Part shown: positions 25,016 through 59,666 of the stretch, in pieces
How positions within the stretch are numbered: the stretch's first letter is position 1
Layout of the letters: each line of letters starts with the position of its first letter
Origin: an uncultured virus (IMG/VR IMGVR_UViG_3300028678_000003)
Lineage: Duplodnaviria > Heunggongvirae > Uroviricota > Caudoviricetes
DNA: 64,000 bases
IMG/VR virus record: IMGVR_UViG_3300028678_000003
Strand: one strand, 5' to 3'
Program-made: the position numbers and the translations under genes
The notes under the pieces: model-generated
What the model saw: only the letters and a program-made list of their open reading frames with translations
The model's database searches: none
What the model was told of the DNA's origin: nothing

Positions 25016-25677
25016 TACTTTGTTTTATTTACGTAAATTTCTTCAGGGAGCATTTTCTTTATGTAGCCCTGCTCAAACCAAAGTAGCCCTGATTGGCTCT
25101 TATAAAACCTTTTCGCGAGGTCAAATTTTATGTCGTGAATCTCAACCGTCGGGATTGACTTGTAAAGTTCAAAATCTACCAAGCTGTTTTCAAACTGCTC
25201 TTTTGCCCGCTTCTTATACGAATGAGGAAATTCTCTATAAAAGTAATTTGCTTGAGCTGAAATTAACCAATGTACAAAATAATGGAAAGGGTGCGACTGC
25301 CCGAAAGGAGCTACAATTTTATAATCGGGATTTATCTTTTGAAATTTCCTGATGAAGGCATACAAAGCTTGAGAAATTTCAGTCAACTTATCTTCTCCCC
25401 AATATTCTGTCAAATAATTTAGGGCATTCTCGTGATTAACGGTTTTAAACTGTTTAAAATACCCGTAATAGCTTTGGTCGTCGAACTCTACTGTCAAGTG
25501 GTGAAAAGGTATGTTCAAGAACTCATAAAGGTTCTTATCTTCTTGTATACGCTTTGCATTATTTTCAACGGTCAACACTTGAACTTCGTACCCTTCTCCC
25601 AATAGTGCGTGCGCACAACTAAACAAAATATCATCACTGTGCGGCTGAATTAGCAATAGCTTTTCTACTTTTCCCAT
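25015..25677 (-). CDS. PIG-L/LmbE-family N-deacetylase
   Basis: LLIQPHSDDILFSC, HPFH and YKSQ motifs. Confidence 0.75.
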   Translation of the reverse strand: MGKVEKLLLIQPHSDDILFSCAHALLGEGYEVQVLTVENNAKRIQEDKNLYEFLNIPFHHLTVEFDDQSYYGYFKQFKTVNHENALNYLTEYWGEDKLTEISQALYAFIRKFQKINPDYKIVAPFGQSHPFHYFVHWLISAQANYFYREFPHSYKKRAKEQFENSLVDFELYKSIPTVEIHDIKFDLAKRFYKSQSGLLWFEQGYIKKMLPEEIYVNKTK

Positions 25678-26633
25678 TTTCTTTTTACAATTATTTTTGA
25701 TAAAGGTTGATTCTTTTTTGTTACTGATTGGGCCAATGTCCGGACTTCATCGCTTATTTCCGGAAGTGTCTTTTGACCTGTTGGATCTGGAAGTAATCCA
25801 ACTCGCATGCTTAAATTTGTACAACCTAAACATGGTGAGAAACTTCGTTCCTTATTATACAACATAACTCTGGCGGCTTGAAAACGTTCGTGGTTCCACA
25901 GCGCGTCAATTTCATAGTCAAATATACTGCCAATTGGATAAGTGCCTCTGAAGTCGTCGCAACATAAAGCCACATTTCCATCCCAGCGAAAAGACATTTC
26001 CCTAAACGGCATAGTGCAACGTTTATGTTGGTCTTTGTTATCCAATGGGAACGCTGCTCCACAATGGTTAGTTAGGTTACGAACTAATGATATTTGTTCG
26101 GTACGTATTGGCGGAACAACTAAAATACGGAACTCTTTTTTGTCAGAGAACATTGGTATCCCTGCTTTGAGATATTGTATGTCTTCCTTGCCATCCATCT
26201 CCTTAACAATTTTTGACCAATCTCCTTCGTCTGAATAGTTGTCTAACAATAGATGGTTGATGCCTGCTTCTTTTAAAGCTTCTATTTTTTCGTGTATGAA
26301 ATCTTCTTCTTTTGCGATACCGTACCCGTTCGTTATTAAATGAAATATTGTCTTTGGCAAAGCAAACCTGAAAATACTAATTATGTCCAATAATTGCGGG
26401 TTCAAAGTTGGTTCCCCGTGCATTGCGAAGATTATCTTACTTGGCCAATTTGCTTTAGCTATTTCGCCCGCTATTTCTTTTGCAGTCTTTAGCGTCATAA
26501 AATTCCAAGGAGTAGTACCTTTTTCTCGCATTCCCCTTAACCCGCAAAAACTGCAACCAAGATTACACCCCTCGGTCGGCTCAATTTGTATTGAGTATGG
26601 GGCATGTTGTAATTCTAAATCTTCTAATGCCAT
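25665..26633 (-). CDS. Radical SAM enzyme with SPASM/twitch domain
   Basis: CNLGCSFC (CxxxCxxC) and GEP motifs. C-terminal C...CC...WN...CLGC. Confidence 0.9.
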   Translation of the reverse strand: MALEDLELQHAPYSIQIEPTEGCNLGCSFCGLRGMREKGTTPWNFMTLKTAKEIAGEIAKANWPSKIIFAMHGEPTLNPQLLDIISIFRFALPKTIFHLITNGYGIAKEEDFIHEKIEALKEAGINHLLLDNYSDEGDWSKIVKEMDGKEDIQYLKAGIPMFSDKKEFRILVVPPIRTEQISLVRNLTNHCGAAFPLDNKDQHKRCTMPFREMSFRWDGNVALCCDDFRGTYPIGSIFDYEIDALWNHERFQAARVMLYNKERSFSPCLGCTNLSMRVGLLPDPTGQKTLPEISDEVRTLAQSVTKKNQPLSKIIVKRKWEK

Positions 26634-26639
26634 AATGTA

Positions 26640-26852
26640 TTAATCTTTTTTAAAAATTTCAAATATATAGCCAGTTGACGAACTGTAAATCGTTGCCTTT
26701 GGTTTATCCATCAACTCTATTTTTCGGTTAGTGAAAGGCATGTCTTTTAGTTCTTCGCTACTTATAGAGGCAGTAATTGACATGTCTTCGGGAATCTTTA
26801 TGCCCGACATTGCTAAATTTATAGCAAATTGTTCAACTTCGTTTAGTGTCAT
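26640..26852 (-). CDS. Hypothetical protein
   Basis: 70 aa, first gene after the tmRNA terminator. Confidence 0.55.
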   Translation of the reverse strand: MTLNEVEQFAINLAMSGIKIPEDMSITASISSEELKDMPFTNRKIELMDKPKATIYSSSTGYIFEIFKKD

Positions 26853-26884
26853 AATGTATATTTTTCTTTATTAACTCTGGTGAC

Positions 26885-26913
26885 AAAAATGGGGAGCCTT
26901 TTCGCGGCTCCCC
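26885..26913 (-). terminator. Terminator hairpin ending the tmRNA coding piece
   Basis: Minus strand GGGGAGCC-GCGAAAA-GGCTCCCC-ATTTTT. Confidence 0.8.
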
Positions 26914-27185
26914 TTGGTTCACGTCTTATGCTACTGCTCTGAGCGGTGCATTAGAAAAGTTGATTGTTTTGCCCGTTATAGACAACGACTTTCTCTTTTT
27001 ACCCTACTTATAACGCTGTCAAAACCAAACAGCCCCGTATAATTGTAACTAACATTCCCGTAGTCTAAGGCATAATCGGAATGCAGTTGCCTTCTGTTAG
27101 TTACTCCTCTGGCGAAGGATGTGGAGCTGGAGGGAGTCGAACCCTCGTCCAAACGTATTTCAAATAAACGTCATAGATTGTCGTG
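26890..27185 (-). ncRNA. ssrA: Circularly permuted (two-piece) tmRNA
   Basis: The acceptor piece GGACGAGGGTTCGACTCCCTCCAGCTCCA ends at 27122 and lies upstream of the coding piece, which starts GGGGCTGTTTGGTTTTGAC at 27036. The stem GGGGCTG/CAGCTCC contains G3-U70. Tag frame 26973-26926 reads GKTINFSNAPLRAVA-stop. Outer ends are approximate. Confidence 0.88.
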
Positions 27186-27206
27186 TAATATTAATAACCT
27201 TGGTAG

Positions 27207-28139
27207 TTATTTTGTGACTTTTATGTCAAGCTTCACACCTTGAAGTCTTGGATTTTTAGCAATATATTTTGGAGCAATAGAGAACGCCCGTAAACCTGAA
27301 TCCCAAAGATAACCTTTTTGCTTATGGTTTATTGTGCAACGACAGTACGGGTGAACTGGAGAAATTGTCGCCTTATAATCAGCCGCCTTGAGTCCTATGT
27401 TATTCCCGTTCGCTATTACATCATCCAATACATAAACTATCGGTTCGCTATTTGGGTCTTCTGGGTCTGTCAAGTAAAGCTCTTTGCAATGTTTACAAGC
27501 TCCTTCATAAACATCAAAATAGACTTCGGAATCAACGCCGTGGTTCTTTACGATACTTTGAGCTATTCCGGAGTTATACGCTTCGTGTAATAAGTAGTAA
27601 GCAATACGCAGCCAATCCCTTTCCCAGTCCTTAGTCGCTTCCCCAAGTTCCGCTGCTAGAGTACGCCCGCTTTTTCGTAATTCGACAGCCTTCGCCGCCT
27701 TATCCTTGATTAACGCCTTTATTTTGAATTGGTTCTTTTGATTGCCACGAACTATGATATTTGAAGTACCTTGTCTGATACGACTACCCAGCCCACCAAT
27801 ATCATTATATGCTCGGTTCTTGATTTGTTCAAGAGCAAATCTTTCTTGTTCGGTCAAAGGTATGAAGTTACCAGAACCTAAAAACTTTGTAAACTGCGAG
27901 TAATTCAATCCCTTTGCTCTTTTAGAACCTAATGCGTCGGACAATATTCCAAAGTAGAATGCATGGTCTATTATACCTTGACTATTCTTATACAAATTTA
28001 CGTCAATTCCGGAAGCTAGAAGTAACGCTTTTTCGTTAGCCGACAGATAATTGTATCCAAGTTGTTTACCCACGAATATGCATTCCCACCTTTTGAGTAT
28101 TCCGAGTATATCTTGTATTTGGTTATTGTTGAATATCAT
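27207..28139 (-). CDS. MuF/SPP1 gp7-like head morphogenesis protein
   Basis: C-terminal CKHC...PVHPYCRC signature. Confidence 0.75.
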   Translation of the reverse strand: MIFNNNQIQDILGILKRWECIFVGKQLGYNYLSANEKALLLASGIDVNLYKNSQGIIDHAFYFGILSDALGSKRAKGLNYSQFTKFLGSGNFIPLTEQERFALEQIKNRAYNDIGGLGSRIRQGTSNIIVRGNQKNQFKIKALIKDKAAKAVELRKSGRTLAAELGEATKDWERDWLRIAYYLLHEAYNSGIAQSIVKNHGVDSEVYFDVYEGACKHCKELYLTDPEDPNSEPIVYVLDDVIANGNNIGLKAADYKATISPVHPYCRCTINHKQKGYLWDSGLRAFSIAPKYIAKNPRLQGVKLDIKVTK

Positions 28140-42296: not shown

Positions 42297-42793
42297 TTTC
42301 TTTCAACGCTCGCTATCGTATCATGAATTGCACCGCCGTGGGAGAATAAACATATTTTTTCCACTTCGAACCCTCTATTGACGCCGAACGTATTTGAATG
42401 ATATCCGAAAGTAATTACTTTCCCGCCCATTTTTAAAACATTCGACACTTCGTCTTTAAGTTGCCTAAATGGACTACATCTCATTCCTTTGTACATTTCC
42501 ATACTTTTGCGATAGGCATATGGCGGGTCAAGCAAAATGGTGTCAAATTTTTCTCCTTCCCATGTTCTTAAAAATTCGACCGCATCTAAATTATAATCCG
42601 CTAATGATTCAACGTCTAAATCATTCCTTATTTCGTCAATCTCTAATTTAGTTATGCCGGCAAAAAGATTTAAAGTTTTCCCTTCACAATTCTTCTCTAC
42701 CCAACTTCTTATGGGTTTAACAGAAAATGTATATCTGTGAAGAGGACATTTGATATAATCGAAATCTGGAATTTCTTGAACCGTCTTTTTCAT
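42287..42793 (-). CDS. Small amino-methyltransferase-like protein
   Basis: LNLFAG (SAM-binding) and LLDPPY (catalytic) motifs. Confidence 0.7.
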   Translation of the reverse strand: MKKTVQEIPDFDYIKCPLHRYTFSVKPIRSWVEKNCEGKTLNLFAGITKLEIDEIRNDLDVESLADYNLDAVEFLRTWEGEKFDTILLDPPYAYRKSMEMYKGMRCSPFRQLKDEVSNVLKMGGKVITFGYHSNTFGVNRGFEVEKICLFSHGGAIHDTIASVERKCR

Positions 42794-43305
42794 TATTTCG
42801 AATAATTTGCGTCGCCCTCGCTCAAATTGGGAGCACCATAACCTGAATCCCCAAACCCTTTTGCTCCACGAGCTGTTTCGTCAAGTTTTTCTACGACTAC
42901 GAAATCACCTTGTATAACTTTGTCTACAATTACCATTTGTGCTATGCGGTCACCATCATGTACGCCGTACATTATTTCACCAGAGTTGTAAATTATTACC
43001 CCAACTTCACCGCGATAATCAGCGTCAATTGTTCCTGGTGCATTTAATACCGTAATTCCATTTTTCAGAGCCAACCCGCTACGAGGGCGAATTTGAGCTT
43101 CACAGTCGTCCGGAAGTTCAAGAAATACGCCAGTACCTATCAAAGCACGTGTATGCGGAGGAATGTGAATGGTAGGTTGTCTGTCTTCAGGAGTTGTGAA
43201 ATCTGTAATGTGAGCAAATAAATCAGCCCCTGCTGAATTTTCTGTAGCGTACCAAGGAGCCTGAGCCCCCGTTGCTAATTTGATATTAATCGTTCGTTTG
43301 TTCAT
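42793..43305 (-). CDS. dut: Trimeric dUTPase
   Basis: SAGADL, RPRSGLA, GTIDADYRGE, RIAQ and RGAKGFGDSG motifs. Confidence 0.95.
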   Translation of the reverse strand: MNKRTINIKLATGAQAPWYATENSAGADLFAHITDFTTPEDRQPTIHIPPHTRALIGTGVFLELPDDCEAQIRPRSGLALKNGITVLNAPGTIDADYRGEVGVIIYNSGEIMYGVHDGDRIAQMVIVDKVIQGDFVVVEKLDETARGAKGFGDSGYGAPNLSEGDANYSK

Positions 43306-43767: not shown

Positions 43768-44487
43768 CTACAATTTTTTATATTTTATTTTTAAATCCAG
43801 CCGCCCGAATTTTTCGACCACGGTGCAGTTTAATGGATAACGTTGGACCATTATTTCATTATACTCCAAGTCTTTTTTGTCTCGATAAAAATCGGAAAAA
43901 CCGCCGCTATTAGCTACCATTGTATGGTCGTATGCAAACGTGTTAAAACGCATTACAATTTTGTCGGCATAAATGTTCTTCAACGTGAAGTCCATGTCCT
44001 CTTTGCATTTCAACGTTTCGTCGTACCAAATATCGGTCTTGGAGTTTATTAATGTAATAGTCCCCACGAAACAATTAAAAGCATACGGGTTTTTTGAACT
44101 CCACACGAATTGGCGCATGCCGAGGGTCGCTATGTCGAACGATAAGTCTTGAGCCTCATATTCTAGTAACGATAGATATTCAAGAGTAGGTTTCCGGTTA
44201 GAATTATTGGTAAGGCGACTCGTAACTTGATCTAAGATATCAAACTTTATAATGTCGTCGTCAATCATCATTAACAGTTCACCGCGATACCGCCTTTTTA
44301 TGAAATTCCGGACATAAGATATCCCCATATCGTTTTTAGGCAATACGAGGATATTTTGTTTTTCATGCCCCCCTTTTAGGTATAGCTCAAAATCTTGAGG
44401 TTCTACTACTACTGTGTATTTGATACCCTGAAGCAGACTGAATGTCTTTCCGTTGGGTCTGTTCTTTGAGGGAATGTATATGTCCAT
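43768..44487 (-). CDS. GT-A glycosyltransferase (TET-associated/GREB1-C-like)
   Basis: IYIPSKNR, VVEPQD, GI..VRNFI, MIDDDI, KEDMDF and SGG motifs. Confidence 0.7.
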   Translation of the reverse strand: MDIYIPSKNRPNGKTFSLLQGIKYTVVVEPQDFELYLKGGHEKQNILVLPKNDMGISYVRNFIKRRYRGELLMMIDDDIIKFDILDQVTSRLTNNSNRKPTLEYLSLLEYEAQDLSFDIATLGMRQFVWSSKNPYAFNCFVGTITLINSKTDIWYDETLKCKEDMDFTLKNIYADKIVMRFNTFAYDHTMVANSGGFSDFYRDKKDLEYNEIMVQRYPLNCTVVEKFGRLDLKIKYKKL

Positions 44488-56441: not shown

Positions 56442-56675
56442 TTACTTGTAGATTTTATTGTGTTGGTCTTGATAATACTGACATTCCAATTTGTCTTTGG
56501 TCAAATTAACAGCGAAAGGAGCGGAGTAGTTTGAACTGGCCAATACAAGATAGCGCATACCGTCTACGGTTACAACCTTTCCTTCAACCGATTGTATGTA
56601 ATTGTAGGACTTCCCCTCTTTGGGAGTGAACGCCGTTATCGCTAACAACGCAACAAAGATAATTATCTTTTTCAT
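56442..56675 (-). CDS. Small secreted or membrane hypothetical protein
   Basis: Signal-peptide-like N-terminus. Confidence 0.5.
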   Translation of the reverse strand: MKKIIIFVALLAITAFTPKEGKSYNYIQSVEGKVVTVDGMRYLVLASSNYSAPFAVNLTKDKLECQYYQDQHNKIYK

Positions 56676-57943
56676 TATTTCTTGAATTTAATAACGCCGC
56701 GTAACAAACACTCAACTAACTGTTCAGCGGTTTCGAACAATTGCGTGTTCCTGATATTCTTTTCAATTTGCCCGCCGCCTTTATTTATATGGTGCCAATA
56801 CTCAATATGATCTTCGTCGTCTTCTTCTTTGTAAACCCCGCTTATTTCCACTTCTTGGATAGACCGTAATTGGGGGTTCAGCCAAAAGCACCTTTGGTCA
56901 ATATCAAAGTGAGTCCGGCGGGTAACTTTTGGAGCGATTTCGGCTTTTAGTTTCTGTGGCCTGTTCATCTCTTTGGCCACTTCAGACACAACGGCTTTGT
57001 CTTTTACAAATTTCTTTGGTTCTTCTTGTTGCCCGTATAAAGGCAAAACTTTAACCTTATTGTACTTTTCAGATATGAGACTTTTGAAAACAATTGCTTC
57101 TTGGGCCAATGTATCATAATCTGGAATAACATCCCCTGACGCACGATAACGAAGACCGCTTTTGTTCCCCTCGGTCATGAAAAGTTTATTGGTCTTCAAT
57201 ACCTGATTTATGGGAGCGCCCCAATTATGGTCTAACCCGCATTTGATATACATTGGAGTGATAGGGTGATCCTTTACATCAATCCAACGATTATTACTTA
57301 ATTCAAAAATCATGGCGAAGAACTTCTTCAAGCTTTCAGTTTTGTCAATTTTAGTTCCCATGTCAATTGTTGTTATTTGGTTATTGTTTGATTTGTTGTT
57401 ATTAATAACTTTGGGGCAATTAGTTTTGGGTTTCTTTACAAACTCTTTTATTTTCCCCAAACCGTTTATTTGGTCAATCAATATTTGGCGCGCTAAGAAT
57501 ATACGGCTTTTTATGGTTCCAATTGGCAGTTCTAGTTGCTCGGCAATCTCTTCGTATTTGAAGCCTGATACTGACATATCGAATGGGATACGCAACGTTT
57601 CTCTTAACCCGTCTACGAACTTCCGTATATCTTTGTATTTTAGCTCTTCGTCCGCGTTATCGGTGTTGCTTACTACAGTATTTGTCGCAGTTTCGTAATC
57701 GCCTTCTTTTATTACCAACTTCTTTCGGTACTCGTTGACAAAGGTATTCTTCAAAATTATATGACCCCAAGCGTTCATATTTGTCCCAGCTTCAAATTTA
57801 TCCCTATTGCGTAACATAAGCAATATCGTATTGCTTACCAAATCTTCAGCGGCGAATATATCTCCAAAATAATATATCTTTGCTTTTGCTAAAAGCTTTA
57901 CGCGTAAATCAACAACACCTTGCTCAAACTCGTCTACTGGCAT
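56675..57943 (-). CDS. ECF-like RNA polymerase sigma factor with long C-terminal extension
   Basis: Region 2 AEDLV...F..GTNMNAW...ILKNTFVNEYRK. Region 4 GFKYEEIAEQLELPIGTIKSRIFLAR. Confidence 0.85.
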   Translation of the reverse strand: MPVDEFEQGVVDLRVKLLAKAKIYYFGDIFAAEDLVSNTILLMLRNRDKFEAGTNMNAWGHIILKNTFVNEYRKKLVIKEGDYETATNTVVSNTDNADEELKYKDIRKFVDGLRETLRIPFDMSVSGFKYEEIAEQLELPIGTIKSRIFLARQILIDQINGLGKIKEFVKKPKTNCPKVINNNKSNNNQITTIDMGTKIDKTESLKKFFAMIFELSNNRWIDVKDHPITPMYIKCGLDHNWGAPINQVLKTNKLFMTEGNKSGLRYRASGDVIPDYDTLAQEAIVFKSLISEKYNKVKVLPLYGQQEEPKKFVKDKAVVSEVAKEMNRPQKLKAEIAPKVTRRTHFDIDQRCFWLNPQLRSIQEVEISGVYKEEDDEDHIEYWHHINKGGGQIEKNIRNTQLFETAEQLVECLLRGVIKFKK

Positions 57944-58809: not shown

Positions 58810-59166
58810 TTAGTATTTTGGTATTTTAAAGAATTGACTTATTTGAGGAGCGCAATCTACTTTGCTCCTGTCGAAATTATTCAAGAACCTTTGAATTTCA
58901 CGTATGTCTCTTTCGCCAAGGTCAACGAACTTTATGTAATCGGCTTTTTGACCTTGTATTGATATTACCGCCCAACTCGGTGAGTACTGATGAACATCTA
59001 CACTGACATCAATATTGCCTAATAAGTTCTTGATACGCTTTTCTTGACTTTCTTAGTTTTCCCTTTGGTCTTTAAAATCGCGGGTCTGTTTTGATAGCGC
59101 GGATATTTCTTCGCTGAATATCCAAGAAAACAATTTCTTTAGTAATTTTCTAATGAGCTTTTTCAT
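58810..59166 (-). pseudogene. 118-codon gene interrupted by one in-frame TAA
   Basis: ATG at 59166, TAA at codon 38 (59055-59053). The frame stays open to TAA 58812-58810, just before the next ATG. Confidence 0.6.
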
Positions 59167-59666
59167 TTTACATTGTTTTTATCAAATGTTAATCTCCCCG
59201 CGTAATTCGCTTGCAAGTATTTGAACATATTTTGGAAGTTTTCTTCGTAATGCCCCAAATAATAAGTTTCCTTTATATCGGCGAGCTTATCTCTTTCCAT
59301 CACTCGAGCACGCGCCGTTTCAACGTCAACCTCAAATATGCGAAAAGTGTAATGGAATTTACCTTCTACCAAAGACAACATATATTCCAAATCTTTTACT
59401 TTGATGTTTGTACTGTCTATAACTATGCTCTTCCCCTTTAGCCAACAACTTATCACCAAACTCGCTATCGTTTCAGATACCATGTGTTCCAAATCATCAA
59501 TATCTTCGCGGTCCCAGTACCCCGAAGCTGAATTAGTGCACACCAAACATTTACGTATTGAATCCTTATTTATACGAACAAAGTTTTTGTGCGCCACAAC
59601 AAATTTTTCAGCGAAGGTAGATTTACCCGACCCGCTATTGCCTACGAGAATGATTGCTTCTTGCAT
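59163..59666 (-). CDS. Polynucleotide kinase-like P-loop protein (AAA_33-like)
   Basis: GNSGSGKST, INKDSIR, IVIDSTN and R...R motifs. Confidence 0.8.
   Translation of the reverse strand: MQEAIILVGNSGSGKSTFAEKFVVAHKNFVRINKDSIRKCLVCTNSASGYWDREDIDDLEHMVSETIASLVISCWLKGKSIVIDSTNIKVKDLEYMLSLVEGKFHYTFRIFEVDVETARARVMERDKLADIKETYYLGHYEENFQNMFKYLQANYAGRLTFDKNNVK

Follow-up and report, generated by a model that had tools for sequence, protein, structure and literature searches.

Transfer-messenger RNA (tmRNA) is known in a two-piece form from three bacterial lineages, from organelles and from some marine phages; the founding papers on this form are said to be those of Keiler et al. (2000) and of Sharkady and Williams (2004). 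Here we analyse a putative member of this family on the minus strand of a 64,000-nucleotide (nt) stretch of DNA from an uncultured virus of the Caudoviricetes (IMG/VR record IMGVR_UViG_3300028678_000003; the whole stretch is called the window in the following). An initial annotation, made from the letters alone, had read the locus as a circularly permuted two-piece tmRNA gene in a probable Bacteroidota phage. The reading that we prefer, and to which the sequence comparisons lead us to give a probability of about three in four, is that of a phage-encoded, circularly permuted ssrA gene that would yield a minimal two-piece tmRNA and that derives from a one-piece ssrA of the host.

The available part of PMC9004378 treats two-piece tmRNA in marine myophages, names just three classical lineages and reports 53 of 133 unique phage tmRNAs to be two-piece by ARAGORN, and its supplementary Table S1 (2022) lists 13 of 14 crAss-like phage tmRNAs and that of Cellulophaga phage phi4:1 as 'Permuted'. 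This source is internally inconsistent: its main text takes 50 of the 53 two-piece tmRNAs to come from marine or aquatic samples, whereas 13 of the 'Permuted' entries in Table S1 belong to human-derived crAss-like phages. The Rfam model for permuted tmRNA (RF04321) was, according to the available part of PMC11915505, built from alphaproteobacterial, betaproteobacterial and cyanobacterial seeds, with 79 phage sequences counted; the words 'Phage' and 'Bacteroidota' do not occur in the models and seed alignments of its supplement, and its form-by-taxon Table S2 may already count the class treated here. In the available parts of PMC12291355, PMC13503771 and PMC10013915, tmRNA is mentioned merely as an annotation item or a reference. 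A literature search on permuted or two-piece tmRNA in phages, in crAss-like phages (Crassvirales), in Chryseobacterium phage and in Bacteroidetes retrieved no paper that describes the class, its origin or its loss of pseudoknots. The object as such is not new, as GenBank records of crAss-like phages and of Chryseobacterium phage MA9V-3 carry a tmRNA label and the permuted topology has been tabulated for relatives (PMC9004378); the window adds a member in a new phage group, and an analysis, not the discovery of a class. The kind is a distinct and little-studied two-piece variant: pseudoknot-free, most likely host-derived and probably independently permuted.

Two independent detectors concur on the identity of the gene. 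The only tRNA-like gene that ARAGORN reports in the window is a permuted tmRNA (26835-27213, minus strand; tag GKTINFSNAPLRAVA), and the Rfam model RF04321 (tmRNA_permuted), searched over the whole window, matches 26926-27175 with 50.2 bits (cut-off 47; E 6.9e-07). The locus has the features of a tmRNA, i.e. a 7-base-pair (bp) acceptor stem with the G3-U70 pair, a T-arm of the form GGAC...UUCGA and a discriminator A, and it has the order of a two-piece gene: the 3' half of the tRNA-like domain, a spacer, and then the 5' half with the tag. Direct reading placed all the elements of the initial annotation on the minus strand where it had put them, including the acceptor stem GGGGCUG/CAGCUCC and the 3' end, at which CCA is not encoded (the A at 27122 is followed by CAU). 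The gene is confirmed as a real circularly permuted tmRNA gene. The lineage-specific two-piece models (RF01849, RF01850 and RF01851) did not reach their cut-offs in the window; the best match in the clan is beta_tmRNA, with 37.6 bits against 84, lower-scoring models of the same Rfam clan being hidden by the search tool. The classical marks (encoded CCA, a UUCGAC element and an Ala resume codon) are absent from the window, which has A-CAU, UUUGAC and GGC instead. A protein-coding explanation of the region was rejected: the open reading frames (ORFs) that overlap it are all at most 58 amino acids long and cross the variable spacer.

The gene recurs in many other viral sequences. The exact 29-nt string of T-arm and acceptor strand occurs in 48 IMG/VR loci, of which ARAGORN called 36 permuted and 3 standard one-piece with Bacteroidota tags (GENNYALAA and similar); the 9 loci without a call are mostly truncated or 3' fragments. 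Searched by pattern, the permuted order was found in 49 loci including the window, representing 30 distinct genes, and the closest virus record (G001) has the same gene. Two types can be told apart by what follows the tag. In the window type, a terminator ends the coding piece directly after it; it comprises the window with its identical copies, L032/L036, L046 and L175, to which a relaxed scan added L194, L221, L226, L246, L278 and L298. The terminator has the same position in L032, L046, L175, L298 and the cultured Chryseobacterium phage MA9V-3 (PV245944), whose window-type gene is annotated as tmRNA, is called permuted by ARAGORN (tag GNVIDINKYVAKLEVAA) and scores 64.7 bits with RF04321. 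In the crAss type the tag is followed by a tRNA-like gene; the genes of the crAss-like phages cr50_1 (MT774375) and cr10_1 (MT774382) are labelled 'tmRNA, SsrA' in GenBank. RF04321 scored at least 47 bits in 9 of 10 window-type relatives, the tenth (L194) having 46.6. The window-type pattern was found at 9 loci in viral contigs, one of which (L175) was new, and at 3 loci in a metagenome scan, none of them new; the cultured phages nearest by capsid, DAC19 and SJC03 of Bacteroides, gave no match to RF04321, and similarity searches that started from a marine locus and MA9V-3 gave no usable match to Cellulophaga phage phi4:1. The initial annotation had left room for the order of the halves to be an assembly artefact; as this order recurs in 49 loci (30 distinct genes) and in the complete genome of a cultured phage, such an artefact is excluded.

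The genes of cr50_1, cr10_1 and MA9V-3 resemble that of the window in several respects: all are called permuted by ARAGORN, match RF04321 (60.3, 49.6 and 64.7 bits, respectively), have a host-type tRNA-like domain and a Gly resume codon, do not encode CCA and leave no space for pseudoknot 1 (PK1). In addition, cr10_1 has the exact 29-mer, and MA9V-3 shares the terminator straight after the tag and a capsid protein with 40% identity. They differ in their tags (GNNFVTDY... in the crAss-like phages, that given above in MA9V-3), in the acceptor pair 5:68, which is G-C in MA9V-3 and U-A in cr50_1, both other than the window's, and in the tRNA-like gene that takes the place of the terminator in the crAss type. 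Moreover, crAss-like phages are podoviruses, whereas the window represents a phage with a sheathed tail.

Several observations were made on the surroundings of these genes. The tRNA-like gene of the crAss type (2593-2664 in L001, 2703-2768 in L002, and present in most crAss-type 29-mer loci) overlaps the ARAGORN tmRNA call, is read by ARAGORN as tRNA-Lys(ttt) or as having an undetermined 2-nt anticodon, and scores 48-54 bits with the Rfam tRNA model; cleavage of this tRNA by RNase P may form the 3' end of the coding piece and so replace the window-type terminator. Matches to RAGATH-22, RAGATH-9 and the Hatchet ribozyme, far over the Rfam cut-offs, lie near the tmRNA genes of cr50_1 (L001, 3517-3683 and 5553-5680) and cr10_1 (L002, 4230-4408 and 5261-5387). 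The window-type gene of L221 (572-814; tag GKVVQMFSPSLRAVA) stands apart from the rest of the class in that it encodes CCA, and a tRNA gene (494-563; Rfam 43 bits) lies immediately upstream of its acceptor piece. A subgroup of the UUUGAC/no-CCA genes (L204, L207, L224, L269, L274 and L275) has tags like GEQVELAMAA, a longer structured 3' region past the tag and, in three members (L207, L224 and L269), spacers of 18-19 nt; helix P2a covaries within it (AAGAG/CUCUU, CGAUG/CAUUG, GGGUG/CACUU).

The two halves of the gene are tied together by covariation. In each of 54 distinct permuted genes, pair 5:68 of the acceptor stem is complementary (C-G, G-C, U-A and A-U all occur, and the 5' strand, which lies on the other piece, had been left free by the search pattern), and so is position 2 of the T-stem. 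For helix P2a, which joins the pieces beside GGAC, the cognate helices have a mean of 6.12 bp (minimum 4) over 24 distinct combinations, compared with 3.36 bp in the 534 non-cognate pairs; the observed mean was reached in 0 of 5000 permutations, and compensated versions are found in L032 (AGGGGC/GCCUUU), L175 (AGCUUAU/GUAAGUU), L298 (AGCAGU/ACUGUU) and L221 (GGAUUAAU/GUUAGUCC). The covariation among relatives that was proposed as a check of the annotation is thus present in the acceptor stem, the T-stem and P2a. The pairing that had been suggested between the pieces, GCGTTATA with TATGACGT, exists and reaches 9 bp when lengthened by one pair, but it is not a conserved helix: this distal option is found in 2 of 11 window-type genes, whereas a proximal helix of the P2a type (AGCGU/ACGUU in the window) is found in 11 of 11. 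The proximal helix beside GGAC is the conserved inter-piece pairing, and it matches what is expected from tmRNA geometry. A further helix P2b (UAAGUAG with UUAUUUG), which has equivalents in L298 and MA9V-3, is plausible but weak.

These observations also bear on the explanation that the locus is a leftover of integration at a host ssrA, with an attP-type 3' fragment that happens to lie close to a 5'-like stretch, or a misassembly in which the halves were swapped. The 3' ends of ssrA genes are common phage attachment sites, and several viral contigs indeed terminate in a standard Bacteroidota tmRNA (L006, L025 and L047, plus 3' fragments). Set against this are the same order in 36 of the 48 29-mer loci, in 30 distinct genes and in complete deposited genomes, a conserved tag frame, and the lack of a match to integrase families among the scanned window ORFs (65 against Pfam and an overlapping 37 against PHROGs). 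Because the order is conserved and the covariation spans the two halves, this explanation is effectively refuted.

The tag frame is as regular as the helices. In the first set, a GGC resume codon lies 59-65 nt from G1 in each of the 30 distinct genes, and the frame runs over 13-16 codons to a TAA stop. Between the window and L046, 12 of 15 codons differ, and the four silent differences all fall within the shared C-terminal LRAVA. This C-terminal L-R/K-A-V-A is kept in L046, L221, L226 and L298 with Leu, Ala and Val codons that change at the third position only, L221 and L226 using yet other synonymous codons; likewise, 3 silent changes in the crAss type leave FVTDY intact. Such substitutions have the pattern of a translated peptide under constraint. 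The phage tags end in RAVA, RIAA, RMAA or KAVA, whereas those of the hosts end in YALAA, which suggests that proteins tagged by the phage RNA may meet a fate different from that of host-tagged ones.

It is against this background that a non-tagging role has to be judged, in which the RNA would act as a tRNA-like decoy or regulator in competition with the host tmRNA for SmpB, the alanyl-tRNA synthetase (AlaRS) or ribosomes. We consider such a role very unlikely, given that the position and length of the tag frame are conserved in 30 of 30 first-set genes, that the silent-only changes at conserved tag residues show the peptide to be under selection, that the resume context UAAxN-GGC is similar to that of host genes, and that neither a stop codon nor a terminator is ever missing. 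The decoy role has in its favour that all pseudoknots are absent and that a precedent exists in mycobacteriophage DS6A. As described in the available part of PMC11915505, the tmRNA-like RNA of DS6A is, like that of the window, a phage-borne reduced tmRNA derivative and is reported to inhibit the host tmRNA; it lacks a coding sequence, whereas the window keeps a constrained tag frame.

The initial annotation had taken the RNA to be compact, with little room for the usual pseudoknots, and this impression was borne out. The distance from G1 to the resume codon is 63 nt in the window and ranges from 52 to 66 nt among 11 window-type genes, whereas 58 host genes have a median of 95 nt. In a crude in-house stem search for H-type pseudoknots (two interleaved stems) upstream of the resume codon, 8 of the 11 window-type genes gave no candidate and the other 3 scored 11-12, inside the range of shuffled sequences (mean 9, maximum 16), while all 58 host genes, which served as positive control, scored at least 14. 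Past the stop codon there is a terminator alone (8-bp stem with 7 of 8 pairs G-C, 7-nt loop and T-run, 12 nt past the stop codon) and no region for pseudoknots 2 to 4. The mature RNA is predicted to be well under 250 nt, compared to 362-410 nt for host genes.

The closest one-piece counterparts of the gene are found in the Bacteroidota. The 29-nt 3' half occurs exactly in at least 120 bacterial genome loci, and of the 80 that carry a title 78 name Bacteroidota taxa. When run on 120 bacterial loci, ARAGORN called 64 standard one-piece genes, made no call in 55 (40 of these being short loci) and called 2 permuted genes; the latter (L093 and L114) overrun the ends of their loci and have implausible tags, and were rejected as false calls. 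The first 22 nt of the window gene occur exactly in 6 of the 64 one-piece genes and match at 20 or more of the 22 positions in 22 of the 64, although the 5' ends of the host genes lay outside the search pattern. The marks of the window gene are those of the hosts: no encoded CCA in 61 of 64, UUUGAC in 52 of 64 and a Gly-first tag in 64 of 64. In 24 of the 64 host genes with the 29-mer (loci L052-L171), GGGGUUG stands opposite CAGCUCC, giving a U5-G68 wobble in the acceptor stem. That Bacteroidota ssrA is normally one-piece, as stated in the initial annotation, holds for the genomes sampled: 0 of 151 exceeded the cut-off of RF04321, 57 of 61 exceeded that of the one-piece model RF00023, all 50 genes fetched were called standard by ARAGORN, and the 10 best sub-threshold RF04321 matches in Bacteroidota genomes are standard genes. 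In this unbiased host sample, the pattern UUUGAC-AGC... / ...UGUUU-GGAC that is seen in the phage genes was found only in the Gly-tag group (15 of 50). Summarized by class, the one-piece ssrA of Bacteroidia has in common with the window the identical 29-nt 3' and 22-nt 5' parts of the tRNA-like domain, the P2a pattern, the lack of an encoded CCA, the Gly resume codon and the context upstream of it; it differs in being unpermuted, in its length, in having PK1 and in its tags, which have 9-10 residues ending in YALAA against 15 residues ending in LRAVA in the window.

The classical two-piece tmRNAs (of Alphaproteobacteria, a betaproteobacterial lineage and cyanobacteria, with phage copies such as that of Methylophilales phage Melnitz; available part of PMC9004378) share with the window the permuted order, a precursor that is presumably cut into an acceptor and a coding piece held together by the acceptor stem and P2, and a match to the merged model RF04321. 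The window class differs from their phage copies in lacking an encoded CCA, in having UUUGAC instead of UUCGAC and a Gly instead of an Ala resume codon, in the short distance of 52-66 nt from G1 to the resume codon without PK1, and in that a common clade is rejected (see below). The permuted genes of viral contigs fall into three groups: UUUGAC without CCA (32 distinct forms), UUCGAC and CCA with tags of the AND...ALAA type (18 forms), and mixed (4 forms). Ten classical-style phage loci scored 85-150 bits with RF04321 and ten window-type loci 46.6-68.5 bits; 7 of the former pass the beta_tmRNA model, whereas none of the latter pass any lineage-specific Rfam model.

A tree was made from the two halves of the tRNA-like domain (91 rows, 67 columns; many forks are unresolved). 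One branch (82/93) contains all 28 window-class genes together with 11 of the 13 host genes that have a Gly tag. Of the 20 other, classical-style permuted genes, 3 that bear CCA lie inside this branch and 17 fall outside it. The window gene lies within a sub-branch (90/80) made up of 11 host genes and 9 phage genes. In approximately unbiased (AU) tests, a single clade of all permuted genes was rejected (p 0.0126) and a clade of the phage class with the Gly-tag hosts was not (p 0.118), where the class label, but not the grouping of all permuted genes, leans partly on an aligned column. Given the failure of the lineage models, the host-type marks and this AU rejection, the permutation is probably separate from those of the alphaproteobacterial, betaproteobacterial and cyanobacterial lineages, as the initial annotation had thought possible, and descent from a one-piece ssrA of the class Bacteroidia, apart from these two-piece lineages, is most likely.

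The strongest competitor of this origin is a functional two-piece tmRNA that came from a classical lineage, for example via marine phages, and whose tRNA-like domain was remodelled to the host type by selection or gene conversion, so that no separate permutation would be needed. Classical two-piece tmRNAs are common in phages (18 distinct forms here; see also the available part of PMC9004378), and convergence is plausible as the tRNA-like domain must suit host factors. Three CCA-bearing permuted genes (L208, L297 and L229) lie inside the Bacteroidota-type branch of a tree with just 67 columns, and the marks are not absolute, with UUUGAC and an encoded CCA in L221 and UUCGAC without CCA in MA9V-3. 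Remodelling would, however, require several changes in concert: CCA and PK1 would have to be lost, a Gly resume codon and UUUGAC acquired, and exact identity to the host attained over 22 and 29 nt. The homology to the host also extends into P2a (AGCAGG/CUUGUU in MA9V-3 fits the host pattern AGCA.../...UGUUU-GGAC), the lineage-model cut-offs are reached by 0 of 10 loci, and one clade of all permuted genes is rejected by the AU test (p 0.0126). We regard a remodelled classical gene as unlikely.

A host-derived, working two-piece tmRNA in the window is to be weighed against several further points. The RF04321 score lies just 3 bits above the cut-off. The P2a helix of the window itself has just 5 bp, and the 9-bp distal alternative is available to it; the energy of the extended P2 duplex has z values of -1.2 to -2.6 relative to shuffled sequences (window -1.8). 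On the minus strand, no sigma-70-like site was found ahead of the acceptor piece with a promoter tool that does not cover promoters of Bacteroidota or phages. A search for RNA sequencing runs that contain 26700-27400 returned none. PK1 is present in nearly all tmRNAs, and since it is near-universal a form without it might act differently or poorly. In the tree, the key branch is unstarred (82/93) and its bootstrap had not settled; the phage class alone as a clade was marginally rejected (p 0.038), which also leaves room for repeated permutation events; and the classical lineages are represented by phage copies that stand in for the bacterial alpha, beta and cyano genes. Finally, with about 67 columns that are selected to fit the SmpB, AlaRS and RNase P of the host, convergence or gene conversion could mimic ancestry.

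The anatomy of the locus is given in Table 1. The 5' end of the acceptor piece could be placed only as a range, from 27206 to about 27168.

Table 1. Elements of the permuted tmRNA gene in the window (positions in the 64,000-nt stretch)
Feature	Position	Strand	Basis or remark
GGAC	27150-27147	-	direct reading
T-stem strands	27146-27142 and 27134-27130	-	5 bp
T-loop UUCGACU	27141-27135	-	direct reading
Acceptor 3' strand CAGCUCC	27129-27123	-	direct reading
Discriminator A	27122	-	followed by CAU rather than CCA
3' half of tRNA-like domain (GGAC, T-stem and loop, 3' acceptor strand, discriminator A)	27122..27150	-	sequence, ARAGORN, Rfam
Intervening spacer, 85 nt	27037..27121	-	between the pieces; presumably removed in processing
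5' half of tRNA-like domain: GGGGCUG and D-loop-like UGGUUUUGAC element	27018..27036	-	sequence, ARAGORN, Rfam; G1 is 27036
P2a strand of coding piece, AGCGU	27013..27017	-	covariation; compensated changes in L032, L046, L175, L298, MA9V-3
P2a strand of acceptor piece, ACGUU	27152..27156	-	pairs with AGCGU 27017-27013; a single unpaired U separates it from GGAC
Candidate P2b strand of acceptor piece, UUAUUUG	27161..27167	-	7 bp, G-U-rich, with coding-piece UAAGUAG 27010-27004; weak, inferred
Linker from P2a to resume codon, with conserved AAGUAGGGUA motif; no pseudoknot 1	26974..27012	-	spacing and pseudoknot search
Tag frame: GGC resume codon, GKTINFSNAPLRAVA, 15 codons, TAA	26926..26973	-	ARAGORN and codon comparison
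Intrinsic terminator ending the coding piece	26885..26913	-	stem 26913-26891, then ATTTTTG tail

From this anatomy, a mode of action can be proposed, the steps of which rest on established tmRNA and tRNA-processing biology. A single transcript would comprise the acceptor piece, the spacer and the coding piece and would stop at the terminator. Host enzymes would cut it 5' of G1 (RNase P) and past the discriminator A (RNase Z or exonucleases), CCA would be added by the CCA-adding enzyme of the host, and the two RNAs would be joined through the 7-bp acceptor stem and helix P2. The complex would be charged by the host AlaRS via G3-U70 and delivered to stalled ribosomes by host SmpB and EF-Tu, upon which translation would resume at GGC (26973), append GKTINFSNAPLRAVA and stop at UAA. 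SmpB was found neither among the 65 window ORFs compared with Pfam nor among the overlapping 37 compared with PHROGs, and this, together with a tRNA-like domain identical to that of the host, fits a reliance on host RNase P, RNase Z, CCA-adding enzyme, AlaRS, SmpB and EF-Tu. Transcription, processing, charging, the use of SmpB, tagging and a benefit to the phage are all inferred; candidates for the latter are an extra rescue capacity against non-stop mRNAs made during infection, and a tag that would steer rescued proteins elsewhere. As to the history of the gene, an ancestral ssrA would have been captured by the phage and permuted, with the loss of all four pseudoknots. A possible route to the permutation is integration at the 3' end of ssrA followed by an aberrant excision that placed the 3' fragment upstream of the 5' part.

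The spacer has none of the constancy of the functional parts. Spacers are hypervariable (36 distinct ones in 68 loci, 18-433 nt; for example 433 nt in L050, 216 nt in L034, 208 nt in L051 and 18-19 nt in L207, L224 and L269), and genes with nearly identical functional parts may have unrelated spacers between them; the spacer of the cr10_1 type contains a T-arm-like GAGGTTCGACTCCTC. This suggests that the spacer is a site of frequent replacement or insertion. In the window it can form a 10-bp hairpin (minimum free energy -19.1 kcal/mol, z -1.94). A conserved spacer hairpin was considered as a feature and dismissed as not firm, the median z being -1.45 over 32 distinct spacers with 10 of 32 below -2 (4 spacers were skipped for length).

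The long ORFs of the window all lie on the minus strand, and their annotations are those of a phage. PHROGs matches include a tail sheath, major head protein, head protease, portal, large terminase, helicase and exonucleases; further matches, to Pfam, are a holin, a GH108 lysin, a dUTPase, HU, a sigma-70-like factor, a TET-associated glycosyltransferase and a radical-SAM/SPASM protein. The structural and packaging genes bear out the phage origin that had been assumed, and the sheath indicates a contractile tail. By capsid, the nearest deposited phages are DAC16-23 and SJC03 of Bacteroides thetaiotaomicron, with 45% identity, and Chryseobacterium phage MA9V-3, with 40%; by terminase, they are the same Bacteroides phages (37%); these relatives and the 29-mer shared with Bacteroidota ssrA support the Bacteroidota host that had been surmised.

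Some further genes of the window deserve mention. The radical-SAM/SPASM protein (25665-26633) is encoded two genes downstream of the tmRNA, past a small ORF that starts at 26851. The TET-associated glycosyltransferase (43768-44487; PF20691, 69.9 bits) adjoins a dUTPase/dCTP-deaminase-like gene (42793-43305), a neighbourhood that hints at hypermodified phage DNA. Furthermore, the window encodes an AAA_33/zeta-toxin-like kinase (59163-59666; 58.4 bits) and the sigma-70-like factor, with regions 2 and 4 (56675-57943); tmRNA-bearing crAss-like phages also have sigma-factor genes close by.

Put most boldly, the Bacteroidota phages would have made a fourth kind of two-piece tmRNA, in which a host ssrA was captured, permuted in phage genomes, stripped of all four pseudoknots and given phage-specific tags (...L-R-A-V-A, ...FVTDY...) that redirect the fate of rescued proteins; for this extended proposal as a whole we see the odds as evenly balanced. 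A separate, host-derived origin would, if true, mean that the permutation of tmRNA is easier and commoner than believed, and that its carriers include the abundant crAss-like phages of the gut. A natural tmRNA without any pseudoknot, PK1 included, would, if it works, be a minimal tmRNA that defines the least needs of trans-translation. The phage-specific tags suggest that phages may alter the fate of rescued proteins, beyond adding rescue capacity, an idea that is testable in a cultured pair, phage MA9V-3 on Chryseobacterium sp. MA9. The gene is, moreover, useful as a marker of a Bacteroidota host for uncultured phages.

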